A stretch of 64,000 nucleotides of DNA from an uncultured Mycobacteriaceae bacterium (GTDB lineage: Bacteria > Pseudomonadota > Alphaproteobacteria > DSM-16000 > Inquilinaceae): assembly GCA_964406375.1 (NCBI GenBank), contig CAYORM010000006.1, positions 14,167-78,166 of the forward strand. The letters run 5' to 3'. The position numbers and the translations under genes were made by a program. Under the pieces are notes generated by a model. The model was given only the letters and a program-made list of their open reading frames with translations. It did no database searches and was not told the origin of the DNA. This document shows, one piece after another, positions 21,053 through 40,309 of the stretch (positions are counted from its first letter, which is position 1; each line of letters begins with the position of its first letter).

Positions 21053-21067
21053 ATGTTACCGGTATCA
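21053..21067. promoter_or_regulatory. LacI-family operator, copy 3 (ATGTTACCGGTATCA)
   Basis: Identical 15-mer to copy 2. It lies 53 nt upstream of the dctP start. Confidence 0.65.
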
Positions 21068-21143: not shown

Positions 21144-21926
21144 CTAGCGCCCGCGCCAGACCGGGTCGCGCTTCTCTGCGAAGGCGCGGGCGCCCTCGCG
21201 CTGGTCCTCGCTGCCGTAGAGCCGGTCGACCGATGGCAGCCGGCGCCCTGTGACGAGCCCAAGCGCCTGTCGGAACGGCATCCCCTCGGTCTCCCGCGCC
21301 ACCTCCTTGATCGCCGCGAAGACGAGCGGCGGCCCGGCCGCGAGCCGGTCGGCGAGGGCCCGGGCCCGGTCGAGCAGCTCATCCGGTGCCAGGAGCTCCG
21401 AGACGAGGCCCCAGCGATGTGCCTCCTCGGCCTCCATGAAGCGGCCGGTGAACAGCAGGTCCATCGCGATGTGATAGGGGATGCGCCGGGGCAGACGGAT
21501 CGTCGCCGCATCGGCCAGCGTGCCGGCACGGATCTCCGGCAGGGCGAAACGTGCCCCGGTCGCGGCGAGGATCAGATCGCAGGACAGCGCCAGCTCGAAA
21601 CCGCCACCGACCGCCATGCCGTTCACCGCCGCGATCACCGGCTTGTCGAGACCCGGCAAGGCCTGGAGGCCGCCGAACCCGCCGACCCCGTAATCGCTGT
21701 CCGGCCGTTCGCCGGCGGCCGCGGCCTTCAGATCCCAGCCGGCCGAGAAGAACCGCCCCGTACCGGTCAGGATGGCGACGCGCAGCTCCGGGTCGTCGCG
21801 AAAGGCGGCGAACGCCTCGCCCATCCGCCGGCTGGTCGCCGCATCGATGGCATTCGCCTTGGGCCGGTCGAGCCTCACCTCGAGCACGGCACCGCGCCGC
21901 GTGAGGATGAGCGGGTCGGCGGTCAT
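21144..21926 (-). CDS. caiD: crotonobetainyl-CoA hydratase / carnitinyl-CoA dehydratase (CaiD-like crotonase)
   Basis: Near-colinear with E. coli CaiD as I recall it: LDRPKANAID, FFSAGWDLKAAA, LDKPVIAAVNG.A.GGGFELAL, and a C-terminus AFAEKRDPVWRGR (CaiD ends ..AFAEKRDPVWKGR). Confidence 0.85.
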   Translation of the reverse strand: MTADPLILTRRGAVLEVRLDRPKANAIDAATSRRMGEAFAAFRDDPELRVAILTGTGRFFSAGWDLKAAAAGERPDSDYGVGGFGGLQALPGLDKPVIAAVNGMAVGGGFELALSCDLILAATGARFALPEIRAGTLADAATIRLPRRIPYHIAMDLLFTGRFMEAEEAHRWGLVSELLAPDELLDRARALADRLAAGPPLVFAAIKEVARETEGMPFRQALGLVTGRRLPSVDRLYGSEDQREGARAFAEKRDPVWRGR

Positions 21927-25182: not shown

Positions 25183-26658
25183 TCAGCGCGTCTCCGGCAT
25201 GGCGATCCGCCGCCCCGCCCCTTCCGGCAGGCCGCCCCGGCGGTGCTGCTCCATCAGCGCGACGATGCGGGCCGCCACAGCGTCCTCCGCCGGGGCGGCG
25301 CGGCCGATGCGCCGGTCGACATGGATCAGCATCTGCTCCGCGGTCGCCAGCGTCGTGCCATCCGGTTGCCGCACCATCTCGTGGAAGATGTGCAGCCGCT
25401 TGGCGTCGGCGCCGAGGATGCGGGTCGTCACCTCGATCGCCTCGCCGGCCTTCGCCTCGGCGAGGTGCCGGAGATGCGTCTCGACGGTATAGGCGCTGCG
25501 GCCCGCCGCGATCGCGGCACTGTCGAGGCCCACCGTCTCGAGCAGCCGGTCCGTCGCCTGGCCGAAGGCGTCGAGGTAGCGGTGCTCGGTCATGTGTCCG
25601 TTGTGATCAAGCCATGCCTCGGGCACCCGGGCGGAGAAGCTCGTGATCCCCGTGCGCTCCGCCGGCGCCGCCTGCCGCAGCTGCGCGGCATGGGCCGCGA
25701 GATCCGCGCCGGCGCCATAGCGCTGCCCCTCCAGCGCCCTCAGCACCGCGACGAGGCAGTCGTCGCGCAGCCGTTCGAGGGCCCTCAGATCGGCGCCGAC
25801 CGGCTCCTTCGCCGCCTGGGCGTCCGATTGCGCCGCGAGCCGGTCGAGCAGCGCATCCGTCAGCTCCGGCACGTCGGTCAGCCGGGTCCATGGCCATTTC
25901 AGCGCCGGGCCGAACTGCGCCATGAAGTGGCGCATGCCCGCCTCGCCACCGGCGATGCGGTAGATCAGGAAGGTGCCCATGAAGGCCCAGCGCAGCCCCG
26001 GGCCGTAGCGCAGCGCGTCGTCGATCTCCTCGACCGTCGCCACCTCGTCATGGACGAGCCACAGCGCCTCGCGCCACAGCGCCTCCATCAGCCGGTCGGC
26101 GATGAAGCCGTCGACCTCGTGACGGACATGGAGCGGATGCATGCCGAGGGCACGATAGAGGTCGGCGGCCCGCTCGATCGTCGCCGGCGCGGTCGCCGCC
26201 CCGCCGCACAGCTCGACGAGCGGCATCAGATAGACGGGGTTGAAGGGATGGGCGACGGTGAAGCGTTCCGGCCCCGCCATCTCGGCCTGCAGCCGGCTGG
26301 GCAGAAGGCCCGAAGTCGAGGAGGCGATGATCGCGTCTTCCGGCGCGGCACGGGCGGCGCGGGCGAGCAGCGTCACCTTGAGATCCTCGCGCTCCGGCGC
26401 CGATTCCTGGACGAGATCGGCGCCTTCCGCCGCCTCTTCCGGGCTGCCGACGAAGCGGAGCCGGCCCTCCGCCGGCTTCGGTGCATCGATCAGCCGGGAC
26501 AGGGCGCGTCGCGCATTCGCGACCATCGCCTCGACCTTGCGCGGGGCCTCGGGATCGGGATCGTAGAGGGCGACGTCGACGCCGTTGAGAAGGAGACGCG
26601 CGGCCCAGCCGCCGCCGATCACCCCGGCCCCGACGAGGCCCGCCTTGCGCGGCCGCAT
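25183..26658 (-). CDS. lcdH: L-carnitine dehydrogenase fused to a C-terminal thioesterase domain
   Basis: Starts at [23 protein letters not shown].. (codon 170 of the track ORF; its ATG overlaps the BKACE stop by 1 nt). SSTSGLLPS, HPFNPVYLMPLVE and FIADRLMEALWREALWLV..GMRHFMAQFGPALKWPWT match Pseudomonas L-carnitine dehydrogenase as I recall it. The last 150 aa or so (..HNGHMTEHRYLDAF..) look like a hotdog-fold thioesterase. Confidence 0.85.
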   Translation of the reverse strand: MRPRKAGLVGAGVIGGGWAARLLLNGVDVALYDPDPEAPRKVEAMVANARRALSRLIDAPKPAEGRLRFVGSPEEAAEGADLVQESAPEREDLKVTLLARAARAAPEDAIIASSTSGLLPSRLQAEMAGPERFTVAHPFNPVYLMPLVELCGGAATAPATIERAADLYRALGMHPLHVRHEVDGFIADRLMEALWREALWLVHDEVATVEEIDDALRYGPGLRWAFMGTFLIYRIAGGEAGMRHFMAQFGPALKWPWTRLTDVPELTDALLDRLAAQSDAQAAKEPVGADLRALERLRDDCLVAVLRALEGQRYGAGADLAAHAAQLRQAAPAERTGITSFSARVPEAWLDHNGHMTEHRYLDAFGQATDRLLETVGLDSAAIAAGRSAYTVETHLRHLAEAKAGEAIEVTTRILGADAKRLHIFHEMVRQPDGTTLATAEQMLIHVDRRIGRAAPAEDAVAARIVALMEQHRRGGLPEGAGRRIAMPETR

Positions 26659-27554
26659 CACCCGGGGCTCCGCAGCTTGAGTTTCGTGCGGACCTCGGCG
26701 GGCGTCAGCAGCCGCACATTCATCGCCGAGAGGATGGTCACCGCACGCTCGACGAGCGCCCCGTTGGTCGCCAGACGGCCGCGGGAGAGGTAGAGATTGT
26801 CTTCCAGCCCGACTCGGACATTGCCGCCGGCGAGTACCGCCATCGCCACATAGGGAAGCTGCATCCGGCCGATCGAAAAGGCCGAGAAGACGGCGCCCGG
26901 CGGCAGGCGGTTGACCATGGCGAGCAGCGTGCCGGGGTCGTCCGGCGCGCCGTAGGGGATGCCCATGCAGAGCTGGATCAGAACCGGGTCGTCGATCAGC
27001 CCCTCGCGGATCAGATCCTTCACCATCACGAGATGGCCGGTATCGAAGACCTCGAGCTCCGGACGCACCCCCAGCGCCTGCACCCGGCGGGCCATGGCGC
27101 GCAGCATGTCGGGCGTGTTGGTCATCACATAATCGCCGCCGGCCGCGAAATTCATCGACCCGCAATCGAGGGTGCAGATCTCCGGCAGCAGCGCCTCGAC
27201 ATGGGAGAGCCGCTCGGTGGCACCCGCCATATCGGTCCCGGCGGGATCGAGCGGCAGCGGCGTCTCCGCTCCGCCCAGCACCAGATCGCCGCCCATGCCG
27301 GCGGTGAGATTGAGCACGACATCCGTTCCCGAGACGCGCACCCGGTCGACGACTTCGCGATAGAGGGCGGGATCGCGGGCCCCCTTTCCGGTCGCGGGGT
27401 CACGGACATGGATATGGGCGATGGCGGCGCCGGCCCGTGCCGCCTCCACGGCGGCCGCGGCGATCTCGGCGGGGGTGACCGGCACCTTGTCCGACTTGCC
27501 CGTCGTATCACCCGCTCCGGTCACCGCGCAGGTGATGAAGACCTCCCAGTTCAT
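26658..27554 (-). CDS. BKACE family (3-keto-5-aminohexanoate cleavage-like, DUF849) enzyme; candidate dehydrocarnitine cleavage enzyme
   Basis: ..[11 protein letters not shown]...[24 protein letters not shown].. and ..[22 protein letters not shown].. are hallmark BKACE blocks. Confidence 0.85.
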
Positions 27555-27572: not shown

Positions 27573-28769
27573 CTAGACATCCGCCGGCGGCGTCGCGGTC
27601 CGCCGGGGCAGCGTGACGAAGGGCCGCTCGACGATCCGGGCCCGCATCATCAGCTTGTGGTAGCGCAGCTCCTTCAGCGCGTAGATCTCGACCCAGAAAT
27701 CGTCGCGGATCCGCGTGCCATAGGGCGCATCGAGCGTGGCGAGCGCGATGTTGCGCTTGGCGGTCGGCGACCAGGCGGCGGAGGTGACGATGCCCGCCTC
27801 GCGTCGCCGCCGGTGATAGACGACCGCCTGCCCCGCCGGCACGTTGCCGTCGATCTCCAGCCCGACCAGCGCATGGCGCGCACCCGCCGCACCGCGCGCG
27901 AGCAATGCATGGCGGCCGTTGAAGGCGTCCTTCTGCGGATCGACCATCCAGCCCAGCCCGATCTCCCACGGCGTGCGGGCCCGGTCGGCGCGCAGCGCGC
28001 GTTCGGCGGTGACGAAATCGACATTGGCGACGATGAAGCCGGCCTCGAGCCGGGCGAGATCGAGCGCGGCATAGCCGATCGGTCGCAGCCCGCGCAGCCG
28101 CCCGGCGGCGACCAGCCGGTCCCAGAGTGCGAGGGCATTCTCGGCCGCGACGAACAGCTCATAGCCGAGATCGCCGGTGAAGCCGGTCCGCGAAACCGTC
28201 ACCGACGCGCCGTCGATGGACAGATCGCGGATGTCGAAGGGCCTCATCGTCTCGATGCCAGCGAAGCCCGCCTCGCGCAGCACCGCGCAGGCGGTCGGCC
28301 CCTGCAGGGCGAGCGCAGCGATCCGCTCCGTCTCCTCCTCGATCTCGACATCGAAGCCGCGCGCGCTGTCGAGCAGCCAGGGCAGATGCCGCTCCTGGCA
28401 GCACAGCCGGAAGGTGCCGCCCGGCAGGTGGAACAGCGTGCCGTCGTCGAGGACATGGCCCTCGCCGTCGCACCAGGCGGTGTAGTGCACCCGCCCCGGG
28501 CGCAGCTTCGCCACCGAGCGCAGCGTCAGCCGGTCGAGATAGGCGACGGCATCCGGCCCGGCGATCCGGTACTTCGTCATCGGCGACAGGTCGAACAGAC
28601 CGCAGCCATTGCGCAGGGCGAAGTATTCGAGCTCGCGATCCTCGATCACCGACGGCGCGGCGAAGCCGCTCCAGGAATACCAGGCGGTGGTGCGCATTGC
28701 CGCCGCGATCCGCGGATGGAACGGCGTCATGCGCTGCGGCGCACGGAAATGATCGCGGGCCGCGGTCAT
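27573..28769 (-). CDS. aminomethyltransferase (GcvT/DmdA-like, folate-binding) family protein
   Basis: ..EYFALRNGCGLFDLSPMTKYRIAGPDA..YLDRL.., ..SRTGFTGDLGYELF.., ..GYAALDLARLEAG.. are GcvT-family blocks. ATG at 28769 forms an ATGA overlap with the upstream stop. Confidence 0.85.
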   Translation of the reverse strand: MTAARDHFRAPQRMTPFHPRIAAAMRTTAWYSWSGFAAPSVIEDRELEYFALRNGCGLFDLSPMTKYRIAGPDAVAYLDRLTLRSVAKLRPGRVHYTAWCDGEGHVLDDGTLFHLPGGTFRLCCQERHLPWLLDSARGFDVEIEEETERIAALALQGPTACAVLREAGFAGIETMRPFDIRDLSIDGASVTVSRTGFTGDLGYELFVAAENALALWDRLVAAGRLRGLRPIGYAALDLARLEAGFIVANVDFVTAERALRADRARTPWEIGLGWMVDPQKDAFNGRHALLARGAAGARHALVGLEIDGNVPAGQAVVYHRRRREAGIVTSAAWSPTAKRNIALATLDAPYGTRIRDDFWVEIYALKELRYHKLMMRARIVERPFVTLPRRTATPPADV

Positions 28770-30331
28770 CGCCGCCCCTCCCGCTCGAGGATACGGCGGG
28801 CGGCATTCCAGCCCGGCACCCCCGAGACGCCACCGCCCGGATGCGAGCCGGCGCCGCACAGATAAAGCCCGCCGACCGGGGTGTCGTAGCGCTCGGCGCC
28901 GAAGACCGGGCGCAGCACGAACATCTGATCGACCGCGAGTTCGCCGTGGTGCCACTGGCCGCCGGGCATGCGCCAGCGCGCCTCCAGATCGTCCGGCGTG
29001 AGGAGTTCCGCCGCCCGCACCCGGGCGCCGATCCCCGGCGCATGCGCCTCGAGCACCGCCATCGCCGTCCGGAGGACGGCCGCGCGGTCGGCGCCCGGCG
29101 GGACATATTGGATGCAGGCCGACAGGACATGGCCGCCGGCCGGCGCCAGCGACGGATCGGTGACGGTGGGCAGCACGATCTCCATCGCCGGCGCGGGCGA
29201 GGCTTCGCCATACTTCACCGCATTGAAGGCGCGCTCGACATGATCGATGGAGGGGGCGACGAGCAGCCGGTCACCGAGCCGCTCCGGCGGGAGACCGATG
29301 AACGCAGGCGCCCCGTCGAGCGCCAGATGCAGCTTGGCAACGGTGCCCCTGATCCGGATCCCCTCGACCCGCCGCACGAAATCGGTGTCGAGCCGCGGTG
29401 CGCCGACGAGATCGAGGAAGGTCGTCCGCGGATTGACCGCCGAGACGATGACGGCGGCGGCGATCCGTTCGCCAGCCTCGGTCACGACCGCGACCACCCG
29501 GCCGCGCTCCACCTCGATCGCCGCGACCGGCGTGGCCGTCCGGATGGTGACGCCGGCCGCCCGCGCCGCCGCCTCGAGGGCCGCCGCGACGGACCCCATG
29601 CCGCCCACCGGCAGGGCGAGCGCCGCCTGCCGTCCGTCCACCGAGCCGGCGAGCCGGTAGAGCAGTGTCATCAGCGAGGTCGGCGAGCGCGGCCCGAGAC
29701 GCGTGCCGAGCACCGCGTCGAAGGCGACGGCCCCGGCCAGCTTCGGACAGGCGAGTTCCTCCTCGAGCGCGTCGGCGACGCTCATCAGCGCCATGCGCAG
29801 GAATTCCTGCCCCTCCGCGCGGCCGAGCCGCCGGATGGCGAGGCCCAGCCGGGCGAGCGGCAGTCGCTCGCGCCAATGACCGCCCGCCAGCGGTGGCGGG
29901 ATCTCGGTGAGGAAGGGTTGCAGCGTGCGGGCAAAGCGCAGCAGACGCGCGCGCAGAGCGGGCCAGCCCTCCGCCCCGCCCACACTGCCCTCGATGCGCT
30001 CTCCGAAGGGTCCCGCCAGACGCAGCGCCCGTCCGTCGGGGTCGAGCACCGTCGTCGCGACGTTGGATGCCGCCCAGCGCAGCCCGTGCCGGGCGAGGTC
30101 GAGCTCGCGGAGGATGGCGGGATGGAGGAGATGGGCGAAATGGGCGACCGCCGGCACCCGCCAGCCGGACAGGAACTCGATGGTGCGGGCCGCCCCGCCG
30201 GTCGCCTCGGCCGCTTCCAGGACCAGTACGCGACGGCCGGCACGGGCGAGCCGGGTGGCGGCGACCAAGCCGTTATGGCCGCCGCCCACCACCACGGCGT
30301 CCCAGGTGTCAGAGGACGGCATAGGCGTCAC
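28766..30331 (-). CDS. NAD(P)/FAD-dependent oxidoreductase, phytoene-desaturase-like (COG1233), paralogue 2
   Basis: WDAVVVGGGHNGLVAATRLARAG..VLVLE is the dinucleotide-binding fold. The C-terminus LYLCGAGSHPGGGVSG is typical of the CrtI-like family. It overlaps the upstream paralogue by 23 nt, or 14 nt if it starts at M4. Confidence 0.82.
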   Translation of the reverse strand: MTPMPSSDTWDAVVVGGGHNGLVAATRLARAGRRVLVLEAAEATGGAARTIEFLSGWRVPAVAHFAHLLHPAILRELDLARHGLRWAASNVATTVLDPDGRALRLAGPFGERIEGSVGGAEGWPALRARLLRFARTLQPFLTEIPPPLAGGHWRERLPLARLGLAIRRLGRAEGQEFLRMALMSVADALEEELACPKLAGAVAFDAVLGTRLGPRSPTSLMTLLYRLAGSVDGRQAALALPVGGMGSVAAALEAAARAAGVTIRTATPVAAIEVERGRVVAVVTEAGERIAAAVIVSAVNPRTTFLDLVGAPRLDTDFVRRVEGIRIRGTVAKLHLALDGAPAFIGLPPERLGDRLLVAPSIDHVERAFNAVKYGEASPAPAMEIVLPTVTDPSLAPAGGHVLSACIQYVPPGADRAAVLRTAMAVLEAHAPGIGARVRAAELLTPDDLEARWRMPGGQWHHGELAVDQMFVLRPVFGAERYDTPVGGLYLCGAGSHPGGGVSGVPGWNAARRILEREGRR

Positions 30332-31928
30332 TCAGATGGTCGGTGGGCCGCCGCAGATCGCGCAGGATCTCCTTCGCGGCGTTGCGTCCCGGGGCGCCCA
30401 TCACCCCGCCGCCCGGATGGGTGGACGAGCCGCACATGTAAAGGCCGCGGATCGGCGAGCGGTACTGCGCATAGCCGGGCACCGGTCGGTTGAACAGCAG
30501 CTGGTCGAAGGTCAGCTCACCTTGGAAGATGTTGCCCTCCGTCAGCCCGACCTCGGCCTCGAGCTCGCGCGGCGTGCGCACTTCCATGTGCAGGATCAAC
30601 TCACGGAAACCGGGGGCGTACTCGGCGATCTGATCGACCACGGTGCGGGCGAAGCCGTCGCGATCCGCATCCGTCCAGGGCCGACCCTCGACGAGCGGCG
30701 GGCAGTACTGGACGAAGCAGCTCATGAAATGCTTGCCCGGCGGCGTGAGCGTCGGGTCGGTCGCCGACGGGATCATCATGTCCAGGACCGGATCGGCCGA
30801 CCACCGCCCGGCCTTCCAGTCGTCATAGGCGCGCTCCATCCGCTCGATGCTGTCGGTGAAATGGAGATCGCCGCGGATGCAGGGCGAATCCTCCGGCAGT
30901 GCCGGGAAACGCGGCAGCGCGTCGAGCGCGATGTTCACCTTGCCGGAGGAGCCGCGGATCTTGAAGGTCCGCACCCGCTTCAGGAAGGATTCGGGCAGAT
31001 GGCGGGCCTCGACCATGCCGAGGAAGGTCCGCTTCACATCGGCATTGGAGACGACGAGCCGGCCGCGCAGCTCCTCGCCGCCCGCCAGCACCACGCCGGT
31101 CGCCCGCCCGCCTTCGACGAGCACATGCTCGACCGCGGCGCCGGTGCGGATCGTGCCGCCCGCCGCTTCGAAGGAGGCCGCGAGCGCCGCGGTGATCGCC
31201 CCCATGCCGCCGCGGGCATAGCCCCAGGCGCCGACCGAACCATCGACCTCGCCCATGTAATGGTGCAGCAGCACATAGGCGCTGCCCGGCGACATCGGCC
31301 CGAGCGCCGTGCCGATAATGCCGGAGATGGCGAGCGAGGCCTTGATCACCTCATTCTCGAAATAGCAGTCGAGGAATTCGGCGATCGACATCGTCCAGAA
31401 TCGGATCGTGTCGGCCATCTCGGCAGCGGTCAGGTCGTGAAAGCGGCGCCCGAGATGGAGCAGCTCGGCGACATCGCGCGGCCGGAAGCGCAGCGGGTCG
31501 GGCGCGGTGCGCAGCAGCAGCGGCTGGATGAAGCGGCATTGCCGCGTGACATCACGGGCGTAGCGCTCATAGGCCTCGGCATCACGCCGCGAGAAGCGCG
31601 CGAACTCCCGCCGATGGGCGTCGTGGTCGCGATAGGCGGCGAGATAGTCGCCACCTCGCGTCAGCACGGCGCCGCCGTCATAGGCGATGATCTGCAGCCC
31701 GTGGCGCGGCAGGTCGAGGTCGCGGATGATCTCGGGCCGCAGCAGGCTGCAGACATAGGAACAGTTGGAATAGACGAACCCCGGATGGAGCGACCGGCTG
31801 GTGGCCGCGCCGCCAACCCAGGGATTGCGCTCGACCACCAGCACATCGAGCCCGGCGCGCTGCAGGTAGCAGGCCGCCACCAGCCCATTATGCCCCGCGC
31901 CGATCACGACCGCATCGAAGGTCTTCAT
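30309..31928 (-). CDS. NAD(P)/FAD-dependent oxidoreductase, phytoene-desaturase-like (COG1233), paralogue 1
   Basis: MKTFDAVVIGAGHNGLVAACYLQRAG..VLVVE.., and C-terminal LYMCGSSTHPGGGVMG. First gene of the 8-gene operon. Confidence 0.82.
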   Translation of the reverse strand: MKTFDAVVIGAGHNGLVAACYLQRAGLDVLVVERNPWVGGAATSRSLHPGFVYSNCSYVCSLLRPEIIRDLDLPRHGLQIIAYDGGAVLTRGGDYLAAYRDHDAHRREFARFSRRDAEAYERYARDVTRQCRFIQPLLLRTAPDPLRFRPRDVAELLHLGRRFHDLTAAEMADTIRFWTMSIAEFLDCYFENEVIKASLAISGIIGTALGPMSPGSAYVLLHHYMGEVDGSVGAWGYARGGMGAITAALAASFEAAGGTIRTGAAVEHVLVEGGRATGVVLAGGEELRGRLVVSNADVKRTFLGMVEARHLPESFLKRVRTFKIRGSSGKVNIALDALPRFPALPEDSPCIRGDLHFTDSIERMERAYDDWKAGRWSADPVLDMMIPSATDPTLTPPGKHFMSCFVQYCPPLVEGRPWTDADRDGFARTVVDQIAEYAPGFRELILHMEVRTPRELEAEVGLTEGNIFQGELTFDQLLFNRPVPGYAQYRSPIRGLYMCGSSTHPGGGVMGAPGRNAAKEILRDLRRPTDHLSDAYAVL

Positions 31929-31986
31929 CCGCGCCCCCTCACCCGCCGATTCGATCGCATGTCCCGGCCTCGCCTGTCCAGCCGTA

Positions 31987-32002
31987 TTGAATGATCATTC
32001 AG
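31987..32002. promoter_or_regulatory. palindromic operator, copy A (TTGAATGATCATTCAG)
   Basis: Contains the perfect 14-bp palindrome TGAATGATCATTCA in an AT-rich pocket. It lies 59 nt upstream of the operon start (31928) and upstream of the divergent TetR gene. Confidence 0.6.
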
Positions 32003-32239
32003 CAAAAATCTTGTGATGGCGGCCGGGCCGGGCTAGGCTTGCCCAAACGGCGGAGGACGGAGTTCCGGTGCCGGACGAGCCAGGCACGGCGGAAGCGGGG
32101 ACGGGGCGGCAGCGGACCGCCGCCGGGAGCCCCGAGGCGCGCCGCCTCGACGCGCCGGCGCAGACCCCGGCACCGCGCCGCGCACGGGTCCGGAGATCGA
32201 CGCAGATCGGCCTTGATTCCGGCTCGCAGCGGCCTACGC

Positions 32240-33070
32240 ATGAGGCTGGACGGGCCACCCGCGAGCGGGGACCCGCGAGGCGCCCCGACCGAGGTTCCGT
32301 TGACCCGCGCATCATCGGCTTCCAAGACCCCGACCTCGTCCGCCAGCCCCCCGGGCGGCCCCTCAGCCGCACCGGCAACCGCCCGGACGGCGCGGGCGCA
32401 ACGGGAGGAGGGCACCAAGGGCCGCAAGGCATCCAAGGCGGTGCGCCGCCAGCAGCTCATCGAGGCGACGATCGATTCGCTCGCCACGCGCGGCTTCTCC
32501 GGCACCACGATGGCCGATGTGACCGACGGCGCCGGCCTGTCCCGCGGCATCGTCAATTTCCATTTCGACAGCAAGGAGACCCTGCTGGTCGAGACGCTGC
32601 GCTCGCTGGCCGACGAGTACAGCGCGCATTGGCGCAATGCGCTGGCGCGGGCACGGCCCGATCCGGCCTCGCGGCTGTGGGCGCTGGTCGCCGCGGATTT
32701 CGACCGCCAGATCTGCAATCGTCGCAAGCTGGCCGCCTGGTGCGCCTTCTGGGGCGAGGCCAAGTCGCGACCGACCTACAAGGCGCTGTGTTCCGCACGC
32801 GACGCCATCTATCAGGACACGATCATCGAGCTCTGTCAGGCGCTGGTGGACGAGGGGGGCTACGCGCTCGACCCGAAATCCGTCGCGGTCGGACTCGACG
32901 CGATGCTCGAAGGGTTGTGGCTGCGGCTGCTGCTCGACGGCCGCGGCATGGGGCGCGAACAGGGCCATGCCACTGTCATCCAGTATCTCGTCGCGCTGTT
33001 CCCGGCGCATTTTACCGCCGCGGGACCGGTCCCCCGGACCGCCGCGACCGCGCCGCCATCGCGGGGATGA
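32240..33070 (+). CDS. TetR family transcriptional regulator, BetI-like
   Basis: HTH region is RRQQLIEATIDSLATRGFSGTTMADVTDGAGLSRGIVNFHFDSKETLL. ..KLAAWCAFWGEA.. and ..LEGLWLRLLLDG resemble E. coli BetI blocks (KAWLAFWA.., GLWLRAAL). The start is uncertain: ATG 32240, TTG 32213 or GTG 32441. The N-terminal 65 aa or so look disordered. Confidence 0.78.
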   Translation: MRLDGPPASGDPRGAPTEVPLTRASSASKTPTSSASPPGGPSAAPATARTARAQREEGTKGRKASKAVRRQQLIEATIDSLATRGFSGTTMADVTDGAGLSRGIVNFHFDSKETLLVETLRSLADEYSAHWRNALARARPDPASRLWALVAADFDRQICNRRKLAAWCAFWGEAKSRPTYKALCSARDAIYQDTIIELCQALVDEGGYALDPKSVAVGLDAMLEGLWLRLLLDGRGMGREQGHATVIQYLVALFPAHFTAAGPVPRTAATAPPSRG

Positions 33071-33195
33071 CGGCGTGAGCGGTCGCGCGGATCGCCCCGA
33101 CCGGGACCGGGGCGGGCGGGGCCTCGGCAGGGCGACGGAAAGACACCCGCGGGCGGGCGGCCGCTGCGGTTCGGCGCACAAGTGAGGAGGGGGAG

Positions 33196-34287
33196 ATGAC
33201 GACACATACCCGGCGGCGATACGTGACGGGCGCCGCGAGCATCACCTGCGCATTGGCCGCGGTGGCCTGGCTCGCGCCCGCCCCGGCCTCGGCGGACGAT
33301 CCCGCCCTGACCGTCTTCGACTGGGCGGGCTATGAGGACCCGTCCTTCCACCCGGCCTATGTCGAGGCGCATGGCGCCTCGCCGACCTTCGCCTTCTTCG
33401 GCGATGAGGAAGAGGCGTTCCAGAAGATCCGTGCCGGCTTCCGCGCCGATCTCGCGCATCCCTGCTCCCAGAGCGTGGTGAAATGGCGCGATGCGGGGCT
33501 TCTGCGGCCGATCGACACCGGCCGCATCGAGGCCTGGGACGACATCATCCCCGGATTGCGCGACCTGGAAGGCTTCGCGTCCGAAGGCGAGCAGTGGTTC
33601 GTGCCCTTCGAATGGGGCAATACAGGCCTCATCTACCGCACCGATGTGGTCGATGCGGCGGCCCTCTCCTCGCTGCGGGTGCTGGCCGATCCCGCCTATG
33701 CCGGCCGCGTCTCGTTGCCCGACAATGTCGACGATGCCTTTGCGCTCGGCGCCCTCGTCGTCGGGGTGCGTGACTGGACGCAGATGACGGATGCCGAATT
33801 CCAGGCCGCCGCCGCCTTCCTGCGCGAGGTGGCGCCGAATGTGCGGATGTACTGGACTGACAACACCGAGCTGGCGCAGGCGATGGCGACCGGCGAGATC
33901 GTGCTGGCCTGGGGCTGGAACGAGACCCCGACCCATCTGCAGGCGGACGGCTATCCCGTCGCGATGCACAAGAACACCGAGGAGGGCATCTTCACCTGGG
34001 TGTGCGGCTATGTCCTGCTCGCCGGCGGGGCAGGGTCCGAGGACCGGGCCTATGACTATCTCAACGCCGTGCTCGCGGTGGAGTCGGGCCACTTCCTCCT
34101 GGACGCGTGGGGCTATGGCCACGCCAATGCGGAGGCGATCGCCACCGCCGACCCGACGGTCGTCGAGGCCAGCGGCTTCGCCGATTTCGAGCAGTTCACC
34201 GACCGCACCCTGTTCGCGGCGCCGCTGCCGGAGGCGCTGCGTCAGCGGATGATCAGCGAGTTCGAACGGATCAAGGCGGGGTTCTGA
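33196..34287 (+). CDS. ABC transporter substrate-binding protein, PotD/PotF (polyamine/amine) family
   Basis: RR-containing signal peptide (MTTHTRRRYVTGAA..APASA), then ..LTVFDWAGYEDP.., ..WGNTGLIYR.. This is a PotD-like pattern. Confidence 0.78.
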   Translation: MTTHTRRRYVTGAASITCALAAVAWLAPAPASADDPALTVFDWAGYEDPSFHPAYVEAHGASPTFAFFGDEEEAFQKIRAGFRADLAHPCSQSVVKWRDAGLLRPIDTGRIEAWDDIIPGLRDLEGFASEGEQWFVPFEWGNTGLIYRTDVVDAAALSSLRVLADPAYAGRVSLPDNVDDAFALGALVVGVRDWTQMTDAEFQAAAAFLREVAPNVRMYWTDNTELAQAMATGEIVLAWGWNETPTHLQADGYPVAMHKNTEEGIFTWVCGYVLLAGGAGSEDRAYDYLNAVLAVESGHFLLDAWGYGHANAEAIATADPTVVEASGFADFEQFTDRTLFAAPLPEALRQRMISEFERIKAGF

Positions 34288-34297
34288 ACCCGGCGGC

Positions 34298-35386
34298 TCA
34301 GACCAGCGGGATCAGCGCATCGACGTCCCAGCCGATGCGCACGCCCGCCCCCGGGGCGAAGGCCGGCCGGCCGGTATTGGTGACCGCGACCGTCAGCCGC
34401 TCCTCCTGTCCCGGGATTCTGACCTCGTAATGGGTGACCTCGCCGAAATAGGTCGCCTCCTCGATCGCGCCCTGCATCGCCGGTTCCGGCCCCGGGCCGT
34501 CTGCCTCATCCCCGAACAGCCGCAGCCGCTCCGGCCGGACGCCGAGCACGATCTCGCGCGCGCCACCGAAACCGGCCGGCAGCGGGGTCTCGATCCGACC
34601 GATCCCGGCGGCGTCGAGCTCGAGCGTCGCAGCGGCGGTCCGAAGGACCCGGGCCCGAATGAAGTTCATGCCGCCTATGAAATGCGCGACGCGGCGGCTC
34701 GCCGGCCGCTCATAGATCTCGCGCGGCGTCGCCACCTGCTCGATCAGCCCGTCGAACATCACCGCCATGCGGTCCGACATGGCGAGCGCCTCGTACTGGT
34801 CGTGGGTGACGAGGATGAAGGTGATGCCGACCGCCCGCTGCAGGCGCCGCAGCTCGCCCTGCATCTGCTCACGCAGCTTCTTGTCGAGTGCCGAGAGCGG
34901 CTCGTCGAGCAGCAGCACCTTGGGTCGCAGCACCAGGGCGCGGGCGAGCGCCACCCGCTGCCGCTGCCCGCCCGAGAGCTCATGCGGCCGCCGTCGTCCG
35001 AGGCCCGACAGCCCGACCATCGCCAGCGCCTCCTCCACCCGTGCCCGTCGGCTGGCGGCATCGAGCTTCAGCCGGCGCAGCCCGTAGGCGACGTTCTGCG
35101 CGACGTCGAGATGCGGGAAGATCGCATAGTTCTGGAAGACCATATTGGTCGGCCGGCGGTTGGCCGGCACGCCGCGCATCGAGACGCCGTCAATGCGGAT
35201 ATCGCCCTCCGAGGGCTCGTCGAACCCGGCGATCAGCCGCAGCAGCGTGGTCTTGCCGCAGCCAGACGGGCCGAGCAGTGAGAAGAACTCTCCGGTCCTG
35301 ATCGCGAGATCGACGCCGCCGAGGGCGACGAAGCCAGCATAGCGCCTGGTGACGCCGCAGGCCTCGATGATCGGTCGGTCGGTCAC
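34298..35386 (-). CDS. ABC transporter ATP-binding protein (PotA-like)
   Basis: GPSGCGKTT (Walker A), LSGGQRQRVALARAL, LLLDEPLSALD. GTG at 35386 is preceded by GGAGG at 6 nt. The longer track ORF overlaps the upstream permease. Confidence 0.88.
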   Translation of the reverse strand: MTDRPIIEACGVTRRYAGFVALGGVDLAIRTGEFFSLLGPSGCGKTTLLRLIAGFDEPSEGDIRIDGVSMRGVPANRRPTNMVFQNYAIFPHLDVAQNVAYGLRRLKLDAASRRARVEEALAMVGLSGLGRRRPHELSGGQRQRVALARALVLRPKVLLLDEPLSALDKKLREQMQGELRRLQRAVGITFILVTHDQYEALAMSDRMAVMFDGLIEQVATPREIYERPASRRVAHFIGGMNFIRARVLRTAAATLELDAAGIGRIETPLPAGFGGAREIVLGVRPERLRLFGDEADGPGPEPAMQGAIEEATYFGEVTHYEVRIPGQEERLTVAVTNTGRPAFAPGAGVRIGWDVDALIPLV

Positions 35387-35399
35387 GACGGGCCTCCGC

Positions 35400-36245
35400 T
35401 CACAGGATGTCGTCCGAAGGTGTCCGCCGGCGGCCGAGACGCCGCAGCGCCTGCGCGGCCGCGAGCAACAGGAAGGAAGCGGCGAGCAAGATCGTGCCCA
35501 GCGCCAGCACATTGGGGAGCTGCGCCGCGAAGCGGAGCTGGCCCCAGATGTAGATCGGGATCGTCGGCTCGGTGCCGGTCAGGAAGAAGGCGACGATGAA
35601 CTCGTCGAGCGAGATCGTGAAGGTGACGAGCAGGCTGGCCGCGAGGCCGGGCGCTACGATCGGCAGCGTCACCCGGAAGAAGGTGCCGAGCGGCGATTCG
35701 CCGAGATCGGCCGATGCCTCCTCGAGGCTGCGATCGAAGCCCTCGAAGCTCGACATCATGATCGCCATGGCGAAGGGGATGCACAGCAGGACGTGCCCGA
35801 CCACCACGCTCGACAATGACAGATTGAGCCCGAGCTGGATCAGCGCGACGAGCAGCCCGACCGCGACGACGATGTCGGGCAGGACCAGCGGCACCATCAC
35901 GAAGCCGGTGGCGAGACGGCGGCCGGGGAAGCGGTAGCGGGTGACCGCGCGCGCGCCGAGTGTCCCGAGGATCGTGCTGATCACGGCGGTGGCGAGGCCG
36001 ACCTCGAGGCTGTTCCACACCGCCTGATGCAGCGCATCCACCCCGGCCAGCCGCTCGTACCAGCGGGTTGTGAAGCCCTGCAGCGGGAAGGCGACGACCG
36101 AGCTGTCGTTGAAGGAGAACAGCGGCAGCAGGAACACCGGCAGGTAGAGGAAGCCGATGTAAAGGAGCGTGTAAAGGGTGAGGCCGAGCGGCAGGCCGCG
36201 GCGACGGCCGCTCCCCTTTCGCGCCGGCTGCGGCGCGACCGTCAC
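35400..36245 (-). CDS. ABC transporter permease (PotC-like)
   Basis: 281 aa, six hydrophobic segments, EAA-type loop (..SLEEASADLGESP..). Confidence 0.85.
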   Translation of the reverse strand: MTVAPQPARKGSGRRRGLPLGLTLYTLLYIGFLYLPVFLLPLFSFNDSSVVAFPLQGFTTRWYERLAGVDALHQAVWNSLEVGLATAVISTILGTLGARAVTRYRFPGRRLATGFVMVPLVLPDIVVAVGLLVALIQLGLNLSLSSVVVGHVLLCIPFAMAIMMSSFEGFDRSLEEASADLGESPLGTFFRVTLPIVAPGLAASLLVTFTISLDEFIVAFFLTGTEPTIPIYIWGQLRFAAQLPNVLALGTILLAASFLLLAAAQALRRLGRRRTPSDDIL

Positions 36246-37192
36246 CGGACGAGCCTCGCGCCGAGCCGCAGCACGCCGATCAGCAGCAGGGTCGCTGCCG
36301 AGACGATGGCCACCGCCGATACGGCGAGCGCCGCGCCCGAGGGCCAGTCATTGCCGCGGCCGAACTGCACCTGGATCATGTTCGCGATCATCGCCCCGTC
36401 CGGCCCGCCGACCAGCTTCGGCGTGATGTAGTCGCCGACGGTCGGGATGAAGATGACAACCGCGGCGCCGATCACCCCCGGCAGCGAGAGCGGCAGCGTC
36501 ACCCGGAGGAACCGCCGGACCGGCCCGTCGCCGAGATCGGTCGCCGCCTCGAGCAGCGAACCGTCGATCTTCCGGAGCGACACGTAGATCGGGAGGATCG
36601 CGAAGGCGGCCCAGGCATGGGTCAGCGTCAGTACCACCGCATTGACGTTGTAGAGCAGGAAGTCCAGCGGCGCCGCGATGAGGCCGAGGGCGAGGAGGCC
36701 GGAGTTCAGCACGCCCTCATAGCCGAGGATCACCTTCCAGGCGAAGACGCGCAGCAGATAGCTGGTCCAGAACGGGATCGTCACCAGGAACAGCCAGAGG
36801 CCGCGGCGCTGCCCGCCATGGAAGGCGATGTAATAGGCGATGGGATAGGCCATCGCCACGGTCAGCACCGTCGTCACCGCCGAGACCGCCAGCGACCGCA
36901 GCATCAGCGTGCGATAGAGCGGATCGGTCCACACCTCGACGTAGCGGTCGAGGGTGAAGCGCGTGTCGATGTCGAGGTAGTTCTGGGTCCAGAAGGAGTG
37001 CGCCAGGACCGACAGCAGCGGCACCGCGAGCAGTGCCACCGTGAACAGGAAGGTCGGCGCGAGAAGCAGTATGCCGGTCCGCGCCGACCGGCCGGATCGT
37101 GCGCCATCCGCCGCTGGACGCGCCGCGCGGGCTCCGCCCTGCGCCGCTATCGTTGCCATCCTCGTCCCCGGCACGGGCGCCTGCCGCAGCAC
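36242..37192 (-). CDS. ABC transporter permease (PotB-like)
   Basis: EAA loop (..LLEAATDLGDGPVRRF..). The start may be the ATG at 37159 (MATIAAQ..). Confidence 0.85.
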   Translation of the reverse strand: MLRQAPVPGTRMATIAAQGGARAARPAADGARSGRSARTGILLLAPTFLFTVALLAVPLLSVLAHSFWTQNYLDIDTRFTLDRYVEVWTDPLYRTLMLRSLAVSAVTTVLTVAMAYPIAYYIAFHGGQRRGLWLFLVTIPFWTSYLLRVFAWKVILGYEGVLNSGLLALGLIAAPLDFLLYNVNAVVLTLTHAWAAFAILPIYVSLRKIDGSLLEAATDLGDGPVRRFLRVTLPLSLPGVIGAAVVIFIPTVGDYITPKLVGGPDGAMIANMIQVQFGRGNDWPSGAALAVSAVAIVSAATLLLIGVLRLGARLVR

Positions 37193-37380
37193 GCGCTCCC
37201 CCGCCCTCCCCCGCTCGCAGGCATTGGCCCTCCGCCACCGTCACCGCACCCCGCCATCGATCCAGCACCAGGCACCGCCCGAAAGCAATACCGATCGTGC
37301 CGGATCGTGTTCTGGCATACTCCCGCCGAGGAGTAGGCGATATCATTCTGTTTTCAAGTGGTTTTCGTAGATATTGCTGA

Positions 37381-37396
37381 TTGAACGTGCATTCAG
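37381..37396. promoter_or_regulatory. palindromic operator, copy B (TTGAACGTGCATTCAG)
   Basis: Same TTGAAYG-NN-CATTCAR architecture. It sits in the AT-rich divergent region between the permease operon and the aminotransferase (start 37450). Confidence 0.5.
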
Positions 37397-37449
37397 TAGA
37401 GTTTGCGCGTTCTGCGTGTGCATCACCGGGCGGCCGACGGAGAAGACGG

Positions 37450-38901
37450 ATGACGCGACCTCTCGAAACCCCGCGCGGCCCGGATTACGGCGCGGCCCAG
37501 CCCGCAGGGCCGGCAACGGCCGGTCTGAACACGCCCGACATTGCCACGATGGCGCGCCGGCACCTCATCCAGCCCTGGCCCTCGACGGACGAGATCGGCG
37601 ACGATCTGCGCACGATCATGACCGCCGCGGACGGCATCTACGTCTATGACGAGGCCGGCAACCGGCTGATCGACGGCCCGGCCGGCATGTGGTGCGTCAA
37701 TATCGGCCATCGGCGGCGCGAGATGGCGGACGCCATCGCCGAGCAGATCACCAGCCTGACTTATTGTTCGCCCTGGTATTCGACATCGGGGCCGGCGGCC
37801 TTGCTCGCCGCCCGCATCGCAGCGGCGGCCCCGGGCGATCTCGACCACGTCTTCTTCACCACCGGCGGGTCGACCGCTGTCGAAACGGCGGTGCGCTTCA
37901 CCCAGTTCTACAACAACGTCCTCGGCCGGCCCGGCAAGAAGCTGATCCTCAGCCGGCGCGACGCCTATCACGGCAGCACGCTGGTGACGGCGGCGCTGGG
38001 CGGAAGGCCGCGCTCGGGCGACTGGTCTGATCCGATGCCCGGCCTCGTCTCGATGCTCTCCTCGCCCAAGCCGTTCGGGCGGGCGAAAGGGCTGTCGCTG
38101 GAGGCGTTCTGCGACGCGCTGGTCGCCGAGTTCGAGACCCGCGTCGCCACCATCGGTGCCGACCGCATTGCCGCCTTCATCGCCGAGCCGGTGATGGCCT
38201 CGGGCGGCGTGATCGTCCCGCCGGAGGGCTATCTGCCCCGCATCCGCGCGCTGTGCCGGCAGCACGACATCCTGTTCATCGCCGATGAGGTGGTGACCGC
38301 CTTCGGCCGGCTCGGCCACATCTTCGCCTCCGAGGCCGTCTTCGGCGTGGTGCCCGACATCCTGTGCTTCGCCAAGGGCGTCACCTCCGGCTATGTGCCG
38401 CTCGGCGGCGCGGTCTTCTCCGCCGCGCTGTTCGACCGGCTGAAGGCGGAGGGACGGGCGGCCATGTTCGCCCATGGCTTCACCTGCTCGAGCCATCCGG
38501 TCGCCTGTGCCGCGGCGCTGTGCAATTGGGATATCCTCGAGCGCGAGGGGATCCTCGACCACGTCCGGGCGCTCGCCCCCTATTTCCTCGACCGGTTGCG
38601 GGAACTGGAAGCACTGCCGCTGGTCGGCGAGGTGCGCGGTGCGGGGCTGATGGCCTGCGTCGAATGCGTCGCCGACACGCAGCGGCCGGGCTCCTACGAC
38701 GTCGATCTCGACATCGGCCGCCGCATCGACCGGCACGCCCAGCGCCTCGGCCTGCTGGTGCGCCCCTTGATCAACATGTGCGTGATCTCGCCGCCGCTCA
38801 TCATCGGCCGCGAGGATGTCGATCGCATCGTGGACATCCTCGGCCAGGCGATCCGCCTGACCCAGGAGGAGCTGCGGCACGAGGGCGTCTGGAACGGCTG
38901 A
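37450..38901 (+). CDS. class-III (omega) aminotransferase
   Basis: ..LIDGPAGMWCVNIGH.., ..FFTTGGSTAVETA.., ..ILFIADEVVTAFGRLG.., ..FAKGVTSGYVPLG.. (the PLP lysine is in KGVTSG). ATG at 37450 has a GGAGAA Shine-Dalgarno sequence. Confidence 0.88.
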   Translation: MTRPLETPRGPDYGAAQPAGPATAGLNTPDIATMARRHLIQPWPSTDEIGDDLRTIMTAADGIYVYDEAGNRLIDGPAGMWCVNIGHRRREMADAIAEQITSLTYCSPWYSTSGPAALLAARIAAAAPGDLDHVFFTTGGSTAVETAVRFTQFYNNVLGRPGKKLILSRRDAYHGSTLVTAALGGRPRSGDWSDPMPGLVSMLSSPKPFGRAKGLSLEAFCDALVAEFETRVATIGADRIAAFIAEPVMASGGVIVPPEGYLPRIRALCRQHDILFIADEVVTAFGRLGHIFASEAVFGVVPDILCFAKGVTSGYVPLGGAVFSAALFDRLKAEGRAAMFAHGFTCSSHPVACAAALCNWDILEREGILDHVRALAPYFLDRLRELEALPLVGEVRGAGLMACVECVADTQRPGSYDVDLDIGRRIDRHAQRLGLLVRPLINMCVISPPLIIGREDVDRIVDILGQAIRLTQEELRHEGVWNG

Positions 38902-38910
38902 GCCGCCGCC

Positions 38911-40140
38911 TCAGACGAAGGGAGGACCGTCGGCGCGCCGTGCCTGCTCCAGCAGCGTGCGGAAGGTCGCCTCGCCGGGTTCCTCCGCTTGGTTCAGCAC
39001 CGGCATCAGCCCGCGCAGCGCGTCGTGATAGCGGCGCACGCCATGCTCCAGATCGGAGAGGATGATGCCCTCGAAGCCGCTCGAGGCCGGGGCCTCCGAC
39101 GACCAGATGGTGAGCTGGACGTCCTCACGTACCGTCTCGCGCTCGATGCGCGCCGAGAGATAGCGCGCAAGGCGCCGCTCCCGTGTCTCGCCGGGCCAGG
39201 CATAGACCGCACCGCGCTGCAAGGTCAGGCCCGGTGCCAGCGGCACCTCCTGATAGAAGGCGACCGACTCCGGGTAGAGCGAGAAGACCGTGTTCGGGAA
39301 CAGGCCGATATAGATCCAGCATCGCCGGTGCGAGGGGGGCAGATGCGCCGCATCGGGCAGGATCTTCTTGTAGTGGCGGACGCTCCACAGCCGGCCGGGG
39401 CCGTCGTTGAACGGGCCGATCGAGCGCGAGGTTCCGTCCTCGAGCGGCTCGTCGACATAGCCGCGGCCGTAGAGATCGTGCAGCGCCGGATGCGCCATCG
39501 CCACGTGGTAGCCCTCATTGTCGACGTCGCGGACCGCCTTCCAGTTGACCGCCGTCGTCTCGGTCCAGAACGGCGCCGTCGGCTGCAGCGTCTCGAGCGC
39601 GTAAGGGGCGATTTCCGCCTCGTGCCGGGCCATCAGCGTCGCCACCGATGGCTGCGGCCCCGGCTTGAAGCGGATGAAGACAAAGCCGTGCCAGACCTCA
39701 CAGTCGATCGGCTTCAGCCCGTGCCGTACCGGGTCGAGCGCCGGGAAGGTCCGTGGCCGGGCGGCACCGCGCAGCGTGCCGTCGAGATTGTAGCTCCAGC
39801 CATGGAAGGGGCAGACCATCACGCCGGGGCAGCGTCCCTGCTCCCCCGTCACCACCCGCGAGCCGCGATGGCGGCAGACATTGTGGAAGGCGCGCACCGC
39901 GCCTTCCCCGTCCCGCAGCACCAGCGCCCGCTCGCCCACCGCATCGAAGGTGACATAGCTGCCGGGCTGGGGAAGATCAGAGAGGTGGCAGACCAGCTGC
40001 CAATGGCGCCGGAACAGCACCTCCTTCTCCAACGCGAGCAGCCCCGGGCTCGAATAGGACCAGCCGGGCAGGCCGCTGCGGTCCCAGTCATTGGGCAGAC
40101 CGCCGCCGGAAACGCCTGTCCGCGCCGCCTCCGCGCCCAT
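38911..40140 (-). CDS. Rieske [2Fe-2S] non-heme-iron oxygenase alpha subunit (GbcA/choline-monooxygenase-like)
   Basis: Rieske motif CRHRGSRV..(17)..CPFHGWSY, and a catalytic-domain motif ..NEGYHVAMAHP.. I prefer the ATG at 40140, with GGAG 6 nt upstream. The track begins at the TTG at 40152. Confidence 0.85.
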   Translation of the reverse strand: MGAEAARTGVSGGGLPNDWDRSGLPGWSYSSPGLLALEKEVLFRRHWQLVCHLSDLPQPGSYVTFDAVGERALVLRDGEGAVRAFHNVCRHRGSRVVTGEQGRCPGVMVCPFHGWSYNLDGTLRGAARPRTFPALDPVRHGLKPIDCEVWHGFVFIRFKPGPQPSVATLMARHEAEIAPYALETLQPTAPFWTETTAVNWKAVRDVDNEGYHVAMAHPALHDLYGRGYVDEPLEDGTSRSIGPFNDGPGRLWSVRHYKKILPDAAHLPPSHRRCWIYIGLFPNTVFSLYPESVAFYQEVPLAPGLTLQRGAVYAWPGETRERRLARYLSARIERETVREDVQLTIWSSEAPASSGFEGIILSDLEHGVRRYHDALRGLMPVLNQAEEPGEATFRTLLEQARRADGPPFV

Positions 40141-40159
40141 CGGTGTCTCCAATCCCTTG

Positions 40160-40175
40160 TTGAATGTTCATTCAA
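40160..40175. promoter_or_regulatory. palindromic operator, copy C (TTGAATGTTCATTCAA)
   Basis: Perfect 7-2-7 inverted repeat, TTGAATG/CATTCAA, 20 nt upstream of the Rieske oxygenase start. Confidence 0.6.
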
Positions 40176-40309
40176 TATACTGCCGCCGGGTCATCGCGCG
40201 CAAGGCGGCCGGCGGTCGGGGAGCTGGTGGCTTCGCGGCGCGGCCGGCCGGGAACGACGCAGGCGCCCGCCGGTTGACCGGTCCGGGCACTGCCGGACGG
40301 GAGCCAGCC

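Follow-up and report, generated by a model that had tools for sequence, protein, structure and literature searches.

The control regions of a cluster of genes for transport and catabolism in a 64,000-nt stretch of an alphaproteobacterial genome (assembly GCA_964406375.1, contig CAYORM010000006.1, C6:14167-78166; the whole stretch is called the window below) carry three copies of one 16-bp palindrome. We propose, at a probability of about 0.8, that these palindromes, sites A, B and C, are the operators of the adjacent TetR-family protein (~32300-33070), a predicted local repressor and a paralogue of the regulator BetI. The proposal draws on the rarity of the palindrome in the genome, on its conservation at the same gene junctions in other alphaproteobacteria and on its co-occurrence with the regulator gene.

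Three copies of one palindrome lie in a single locus

An earlier note on this DNA had described three palindromes of common architecture that begin at 31987, 37381 and 40160, and all three are found there (Table 1). The pattern scanned was TTGAAYGNNCATTCAR, that is TTGAAYG-NN-CATTCAR, over 16 bp. It had no match in 100 dinucleotide-preserving shuffles of the window, and when up to three mismatches to the perfect palindrome were allowed the window still held just these three sites, with 0.31 expected. The whole assembly (161 contigs, 3,405,566 bp, 69.8% GC, 91.6% complete) has three copies of the degenerate pattern, all of them intergenic and all within 8.2 kb, as compared with ~0.07 expected from base composition; allowing two mismatches genome-wide added one site, C9:23703. 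The motif is therefore not frequent in the genome; frequency without promoter bias was one of the outcomes that the earlier note had named as counting against a regulon. A fourth site, or a true betI, may sit on sequence that is absent from the 91.6%-complete assembly.

The sites occupy AT-rich pockets, as had been claimed: three of the eight 40-bp stretches in the window with a GC fraction of 0.45 or less are these sites. Their placement is also as described earlier, with A at the junction of an 8-gene operon and tetR, B between a permease operon and an aminotransferase gene, and C just before a Rieske oxygenase gene. Site A is 58 nt upstream of the start of flavoprotein 1 (31928) and also precedes tetR. 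At site B, 53 nt separate the palindrome from the downstream ATG of the aminotransferase gene (37450) and 188 nt from the start of the permease gene (37192), and at site C the ATG of the Rieske gene (40140) follows after 19 nt. All high-scoring sites of the window genome (3/3) thus fall in one locus beside the regulator gene, the distribution expected of a local regulon confined to a single cluster.

The sites are conserved at the same junctions in orthologous loci

In a scan of one genome per species, 527 relatives were detected and the best 80 loci were taken with 10-kb flanks (1.5 Mb). The TetR orthologues in these best 80 of 527 are 64-69% identical to the window protein, and their main genera are Mesorhizobium, Rhizobium, Pararhizobium, Shinella, Mycoplana, Pseudaminobacter, Aquibium and Oricola. 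Comparison of the window proteins with the 80 loci by tblastn revealed a conserved order: GcvT-flavoprotein 2-flavoprotein 1, site A, tetR-substrate-binding protein; ATPase-permease-permease, site B, aminotransferase; and Rieske oxygenase, site C. Every palindrome match with up to two mismatches in the 1.5 Mb is at one of the three junctions, and none is off-target. When the best site per junction was taken, site A was present at up to three mismatches in 76/76 orthologous loci, site B in 58/61, always 32-57 nt before the aminotransferase start, and site C in 39/39, where the Rieske gene starts directly after it. The TGAA at positions 2-5 and the TTCA at positions 12-15 are fixed in 173/173 of these foreign sites, whose consensus, YTGAAYR-NN-YRTTCAR, was searched as YTGAAYRNNYRTTCAR. 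Both the window and 76/76 loci therefore have what is expected of the TetR family: close to the regulator gene lies a palindromic operator whose half-sites are separated by one helical turn.

Five complete genomes (6.1-8.7 Mb) contain exactly three matches to YTGAAYRNNYRTTCAR each, all beside the TetR orthologue; the sites stay near that gene despite 12-26 kb of other DNA between the units. A log-odds matrix was built from the 173 foreign sites only, with a training range of 22.8-33.1 bits. Applied to the window genome, it ranked the three window sites first, at 33.1, 29.6 and 23.8 bits; no other position exceeded 16.9 bits. The whole-genome matrix scan and the comparative footprinting that the earlier note had proposed were thus clean and positive, respectively. 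Its central claim, of a local regulon under the adjacent TetR protein whose control regions share one palindrome, is strongly supported by uniqueness, footprinting and the five complete genomes, all of them comparisons of sequence.

A proposed local TetR switch with one atypical operator

The mechanism that we propose is that of an ordinary local TetR switch. A TetR homodimer would bind each 16-bp site; the centres of the TGAA and TTCA tetrads are 10 bp apart, one helical turn, so that the helix-turn-helix heads would enter successive major grooves. Promoter positions were read from anchored alignments of the orthologous junctions (76 A, 57 B and 39 C loci). In orthologues of site B the operator is directly preceded by ATTGAA-N17-CAATAT (57 loci), a block that resembles the housekeeping promoter form of rhizobia, CTTGAC-N17-CTATAT, while orthologues of site C carry TTGCAT-N17-TTATAT, the final T of which is the first operator base (39 loci). 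Because operators B and C start 0-6 nt after the conserved -10-like hexamer, they would cover the predicted transcription start, and the aminotransferase and Rieske genes would be repressed by occlusion, the classic TetR arrangement. From site A, between back-to-back -35-like boxes, TetR would shut off the 8-gene operon and also its own tetR-substrate-binding protein transcript, and so be autoregulated; on the tetR side a TAGGCTTTGCC block is conserved in orthologues at equal distance from operator A, in the form TTGCnT-N16/17-TAGGCT. The inducer would be a small cationic amine that the cell imports, probably an N-methylated or quaternary one, or else an intermediate of the pathway; it would bind the BetI-type C-terminal domain and release TetR from the DNA. 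We infer the binding of DNA, the sign of regulation, the promoter positions and the inducer; what the sequences show directly is that the sites are present, are unique in the genome, are conserved and accompany the regulator gene.

Several points weigh against this proposal. A scan with the strict sigma-70 consensus of E. coli type detected no promoter, either around the three sites or over 20.9-40.3 kb; such a miss is unsurprising at 70% GC, and the promoter geometry given above is consequently taken from conservation alone. Operator A is upstream of both putative -35 boxes and centred near -50, which is not the classic position of a repressor. Site B is the weakest of the three, its 23.8 bits being at the low end of the training range, and its 188-nt distance from the permease start means that control of the importer operon from B is not assured; on that side the orthologous loci have a conserved CTTGAT box ~25 nt beyond operator B. 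The start codon of tetR is ambiguous. The earlier note's count of three promoters needs amendment: the three sites do lie at control regions, but they serve up to five transcription units, among which control of the permeases from B is uncertain.

The position of operator A bears on the alternative that survives best, namely that the adjacent TetR protein binds the sites but at A acts as an activator or dual regulator, or is shifted by its effector between neighbouring sites. We consider this unlikely, but retain it because operator A is centred ~50 nt upstream of both predicted starts, between the -35-like boxes, a position typical of activators. Tandem copies of the palindrome 27 bp apart are found upstream of tetR in two genomes (G008 and G023), and the BetI2 protein of R. 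pomeroyi makes an effector-tuned choice between two overlapping boxes (PMC12442346). Against it, sites B and C lie on predicted start sites, as is classic for repressors, and the promoter assignment at A is itself a prediction. TetR-family proteins are overwhelmingly repressors, which also counts against an activator.

Other conserved elements adjoin the operators. Nearly invariant, like the CTGGACA box on the flavoprotein side of operator A, is CCGTGCCA, ~20 nt past that box; CTGGACA may act as a -35 element or be bound by a second factor. A conserved TGGCACG near operator A was considered as part of a sigma-54 promoter and rejected, there being no TTGC at the required N5 spacing. Beside operator B, ~25-35 nt upstream, Mesorhizobium and Rhizobiaceae have a conserved quasi-palindrome, TTGAAATCAAG, which is degraded to TTTTCAAG in the window (37352-37362); it may consist of two divergent -35 boxes that overlap (TTGAAA and CTTGAT), or be a further binding site.

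The palindrome tracks the regulator gene

Among 40 relatives of the window genome the TetR gene (59-61% identity) occurs in one other genus only. In these family relatives, G008 and G023, the context is rearranged, with tetR followed by genes for an acyl-CoA dehydrogenase and then for another ATP-binding cassette (ABC) system, and it is here that the palindrome is doubled, directly upstream of tetR. In the 38 relatives that lack the TetR gene the palindrome is absent or unclustered. Of 400 genomes sampled evenly across the class, 17 besides the window's own carry a homologue at 41-55% identity; these belong to other families, and 9 of the 22 loci from those 17 genomes have a copy with up to two mismatches within 3.5 kb, where ~0.25 would be expected.

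These data bear on the possibility that the sites are genuine but are read by some other transcription factor whose gene is elsewhere, and that the TetR protein next to them has another target. Palindromes of the TTGAAYAGCTRTTCAR type in relatives without this TetR protein favour it, in that other proteins may read related sequences. However, the motif and the TetR gene co-occur in 80 or more genomes, the motif follows the gene into rearranged contexts and to homologues of 41-55% identity, it is absent or unclustered where the gene is missing, and the cluster contains no second regulator gene that is conserved. We therefore regard a different factor as improbable and continue to assign the sites to the adjacent TetR protein.

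Similar palindromes were seen in other places. Sites of the TTGAAYAGCTRTTCAR form are scattered in relatives without the TetR gene (G002, G005, G016 and G020) and probably belong to a different regulator with a similar outer half-site. The fourth-best site of the window genome, ATGAATGGGCGTTCAA at C9:23703-23718 (16.9 bits), was rejected as a member of the regulon, since it scores lower than any training site and has an unrelated context: it lies (L001:6004-6019) in the spacer that separates the gene for an XRE-cupin regulator from that for a sugar-type ABC binding protein, with a TTGAATG half-site 24 nt downstream, and is probably the site of another regulator. Also rejected was ACGAATGATCATTCGA at C1:60844-60859, which precedes a DeoR-like regulator gene and differs in its outer half-site; we read it as the DeoR-like protein's own operator. 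The gene concerned (C1, L002) combines a DeoR helix-turn-helix with a periplasmic-binding domain, and a second copy, GTCAATGATCATTCGA, is found inside it (C1:61513-61528), 670 bp from ACGAATGATCATTCGA. Finally, G023 (C80 29308-31138) and G008 (C556), at loci L110-L113, each encode a second BetI-like TetR protein, 36-38% identical, directly followed by a Rieske oxygenase that is 39% identical, and in G023 a related palindrome, TCGAATGGCCATTCGG, is upstream of this second pair. This suggests a wider family of TetR and Rieske pairs with GAATG-NN-CATTC cores.

The regulator is related to BetI but distinct from it

The regulator lies in a long open reading frame, 31991-33070, with a TetR-type helix-turn-helix (PF00440, E = 3.4e-11, residues 156-201) and a BetI-type C-terminal ligand and dimerisation domain (PF13977, TetR_C_6, E = 9e-20); its best solved relative is 3e7q, a TetR-type regulator. 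The domain matches begin at residue 156 and the upstream part is an Arg/Pro-rich read-through, the likely start being the TTG at 32300, after GAGG, with ATG 32240 and GTG 32441 as alternatives. Orthologues have 219-249 amino acids and a similar N-terminal extension.

The protein had been described as a BetI-like TetR. The TetR fold with its BetI-type domain bears this out, but the comparisons that follow set it apart from BetI itself. Its score against the BetI equivalog TIGR03384 is 123-125 bits, below the cut-off of 201.3, and no protein of the window genome, in which it is the most BetI-like, passes that cut-off; the looser NF001978, 'transcriptional regulator BetI', is passed marginally (119.3 vs 118). 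It is 25-30% identical to true BetIs, which are 38-58% identical among themselves, and its recognition helix reads SRGIVNFHF as compared with SxALAHHYF or STGIISHYF in BetI. Each of the five complete genomes, including Mesorhizobium and Shinella, encodes a true BetI (240-258 bits) as well as an orthologue of the regulator (116-129 bits), so that the two are not a single orthologous group. Neither in the window nor in the 80 orthologous loci was betA, betB, betT or betC found among the neighbours of the cluster.

The operators also differ. BetI boxes upstream of true betI read TTGATTGACCCGTCAAT in Mesorhizobium and TTGATTGATCGCTCAAT in Shinella, the E. coli betI-betT spacer has TTGATTGGACGTTCAA, and the footprinted box of R. 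pomeroyi BetI1 is ATTGACG*CGTCAAT (PMC12442346). These boxes are of the form ATTGAC-N2-GTCAAT, with a TTGA-N4-TCAA core, whereas TGAA-N6-TTCA is the arrangement in the window. The two kinds of site have related half-site words but unlike spacing and inner bases, as fits the different recognition helix. We conclude from these comparisons that the regulator is a paralogue of BetI and not BetI. We reject the canonical BetI regulon as a description of the cluster on the basis of the TIGR03384 score, the absence of bet genes, the box mismatch and the coexistence with a true BetI.

The corresponding alternative, in which the regulator is BetI, the sites are BetI boxes and the cluster is a choline-induced regulon for conversion of choline to glycine betaine, can claim the marginal NF001978 score, the name BetI given to orthologues in some databases and the resemblance of the outer TTGA...TCAA to E. 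coli TTGATTGGACGTTCAA; in view of the equivalog score, the low identity, the box spacing, the true BetI of Mesorhizobium and Shinella and the lack of betA, betB and betT in the cluster, it is very improbable. Chance similarity among AT-rich promoter regions, the likeliest places for A/T-rich words, has a negligible probability given the empty shuffles, the three sites in 8.2 kb where ~0.07 per genome are expected and the conservation of their positions across 80 genomes.

Comparison with known systems

The repressor of our proposal shares with BetI (E. coli, Sinorhizobium meliloti and R. pomeroyi BetI1) the domains PF00440 and PF13977, the role of a local regulator with a palindrome at divergent promoters, targets in quaternary-amine metabolism, and an outer TTGA...TCAA in the operator. 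It differs in recognition helix, in its operator (TGAAYR-N2-YRTTCA over 16 bp vs ATTGAC-N2-GTCAAT) and in its targets, which are here the flavoprotein/GcvT, importer, aminotransferase and Rieske genes, whereas those of BetI are betA, betB and betT, under choline control. With classical TetR and tetO it would share a homodimer on a palindrome of ~15-16 bp overlapping promoters, a divergent repressor gene and ligand-induced release (here predicted); it differs in that three operators would serve several operons for catabolism and transport in place of a single efflux gene, and in the atypical position of operator A. GbdR and CdhR of Pseudomonas are AraC-type activators of glycine-betaine and carnitine catabolism, including genes for carnitine dehydrogenase and BKACE (beta-keto acid cleavage enzyme) and for Rieske-type betaine demethylation. 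They are thus of another protein family and act by activation, whereas in the window genome carnitine genes appear to have been recruited under a TetR-type switch instead.

A search of the literature for this regulator or cluster found no paper, only work on canonical BetI and on BetI2. BetI2 of R. pomeroyi DSS-3 is a second BetI-type TetR protein in an alphaproteobacterium, like the present one, although the likeness is one of description, not of compared sequence. Its boxes deviate from the BetI consensus, contain TTGAAC and serve two divergent promoters, one of them that of the betI2 gene itself; it adjoins betT and betA and responds to choline through two overlapping boxes (PMC12442346). 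The present cluster has three operators, each single and apart from the others, and lacks bet genes.

Genes of the predicted regulon

The gene map (Table 1) is based on Pfam and NCBIfam scans and on inspection of start codons. The 8-gene minus-strand operon is tightly packed, several of its genes overlapping by 4 nt, and the gene for the PotD-like substrate-binding protein is probably co-transcribed with tetR. Terminator-like hairpins, sought over 20.9-40.3 kb and around the three sites, occur at the chance rate, with no excess. The left edge of the regulon is at 21144; the next gene encodes a TRAP DctP protein and has a different operator-like 14-mer at 21053.

Table 1. Operators, putative promoter elements and genes of the cluster, in window coordinates
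Feature	Position	Strand	Remarks
Operator A	31987-32002	.	TTGAATGATCATTCAG; between 8-gene operon (-) and tetR-substrate-binding protein unit (+); matrix 29.6 bits
Operator B	37381-37396	.	TTGAACGTGCATTCAG; between permease operon (-) and class-III aminotransferase (+); matrix 23.8 bits
Operator C	40160-40175	.	TTGAATGTTCATTCAA; perfect palindrome before Rieske oxygenase ATG; matrix 33.1 bits
CTGGACA box, possible -35 of catabolic operon	31975-31981	-	5 nt from operator A, flavoprotein side; near-invariant in 76 loci; putative function
Putative tetR-side promoter	32011-32039	+	TTGTGA (32011-32016), 17-nt spacer, TAGGCT (32034-32039)
Putative -10 box AGATAT, aminotransferase promoter	37369-37374	+	6 nt before operator B; aligns with conserved CAATAT
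Putative Rieske promoter	40175-40204	-	CTTGCG (40204-40199)-N18-GTATAT (40180-40175); last -10 base is first base of operator C
Enoyl-CoA hydratase	21144-21926	-	final gene of 8-gene operon
ADP-forming acyl-CoA synthetase	21923-24001	-	profile scan and start-codon inspection
Acyl-CoA dehydrogenase	24009-25169	-	profile scan
Carnitine 3-dehydrogenase fused to thioesterase	25183-26658	-	NF005716, 670 bits vs cut-off 592
BKACE	26658-27554	-	start of lineage-specific carnitine block; in 0/80 orthologous loci
GcvT-like folate aminomethyltransferase	27573-28769	-	ATG 28769 overlaps flavoprotein 2 stop
Flavoprotein 2 (CrtI/amine-oxidase-like)	28766-30331	-	Pfam/NCBIfam; conserved in orthologous loci
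Flavoprotein 1 (CrtI/amine-oxidase-like)	30309-31928	-	first gene after operator A; 77-81% identical in orthologous loci
BetI-like TetR regulator, predicted binder	32300-33070	+	PF00440 and PF13977; divergent from 8-gene operon
PotD-like substrate-binding protein	33196-34287	+	order after tetR conserved
ABC importer operon	34298-37192	-	permease 1 36242-37192, permease 2 35400-36245, ATPase 34298-35512; order conserved at site B
Class-III (omega) aminotransferase	37450-38901	+	PF00202; NF005447, 676 bits
Rieske non-haem-iron oxygenase, CntA/Stc2/GbcA clade	38911-40140	-	closest solved structures: carnitine monooxygenase CntA and stachydrine demethylase Stc2

No reductase or ferredoxin gene adjoins that of the Rieske oxygenase, and a reductase gene was not seen in the two orthologous loci for which the flanks were listed (L078 and L080). 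Since the matrix scan found no further operator in the genome, the electron-transfer partner of the oxygenase lies outside this regulon.

The carnitine genes and the substrate of the conserved module

The genes for BKACE, carnitine dehydrogenase, acyl-CoA dehydrogenase, synthetase and hydratase were found next to GcvT in 0/80 orthologous loci and in 0/2 family relatives. As these five genes are absent there, the carnitine/gamma-butyrobetaine block is a lineage-specific extension of the first operon. In the window genome it is very probably under operator A, since the gap after GcvT is 18 nt and leaves no room for a promoter outside coding sequence. A block of this kind cannot, because it is lineage-specific, name the substrate of the conserved core. 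The earlier note had argued that the unassigned genes act on carnitine-class substrates; that claim is weakly supported, the carnitine genes being in the first operon of this genome only.

The BetI-type ligand domain, the Rieske oxygenase of the CntA/Stc2/GbcA clade, the GcvT-type one-carbon acceptor and the PotD-type importer suggest the broad class of N-methylated or quaternary amines, and not carnitine in particular. It is possible, and we put it forward tentatively, that the regulon encodes a complete pathway for an N-methylated (choline-like or quaternary) amine with the TetR protein as its substrate sensor, fused here to gamma-butyrobetaine/carnitine degradation. The parts of such a pathway might be the PotD-type importer, the omega-aminotransferase, the Rieske oxygenase and a folate-linked demethylase of two flavoproteins and GcvT, together with, in 70/80 loci, a methyltransferase. 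If this tentative scheme is true, the fusion of pathway and carnitine genes hints at a substrate metabolically adjacent to carnitine or glycine betaine.

The operator delimits precisely the set of genes that form one group. Across more than 80 species of alphaproteobacteria, and over 1,400 clusters of the regulator protein in public data, the members of this group carry only generic labels such as 'phytoene desaturase', 'aminomethyltransferase', 'aromatic ring-hydroxylating dioxygenase' and 'BetI'. The orthologues of the regulator bear database names that are either unspecific or mistaken ('TetR family ... C-terminal domain-containing protein', 'AcrR family', 'transcriptional regulator BetI'); the recurrent mis-annotation as BetI can now be corrected. 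The predicted pair of regulator and operator would be a ready reporter for the inducer, and hence for the substrate, of the conserved amine-demethylation module, into whose regulon carnitine/gamma-butyrobetaine genes appear to have been recruited in one lineage.

The methyltransferase gene, for a 264-residue S-adenosylmethionine-dependent enzyme, lies between operator A and tetR in those 70 loci (e.g. L076:9116-9910, Mesorhizobium amorphae) and is not present in the window, where a leader of ~250 nt precedes tetR. The closest solved relatives of the enzyme are the plant phosphoethanolamine and phosphomethylethanolamine N-methyltransferases (E = 4e-37). At window positions 32197-32253 there is a weak 19-residue match to its C-terminus (E = 0.006, in a tiny database), which at most suggests a relic of the methyltransferase gene.

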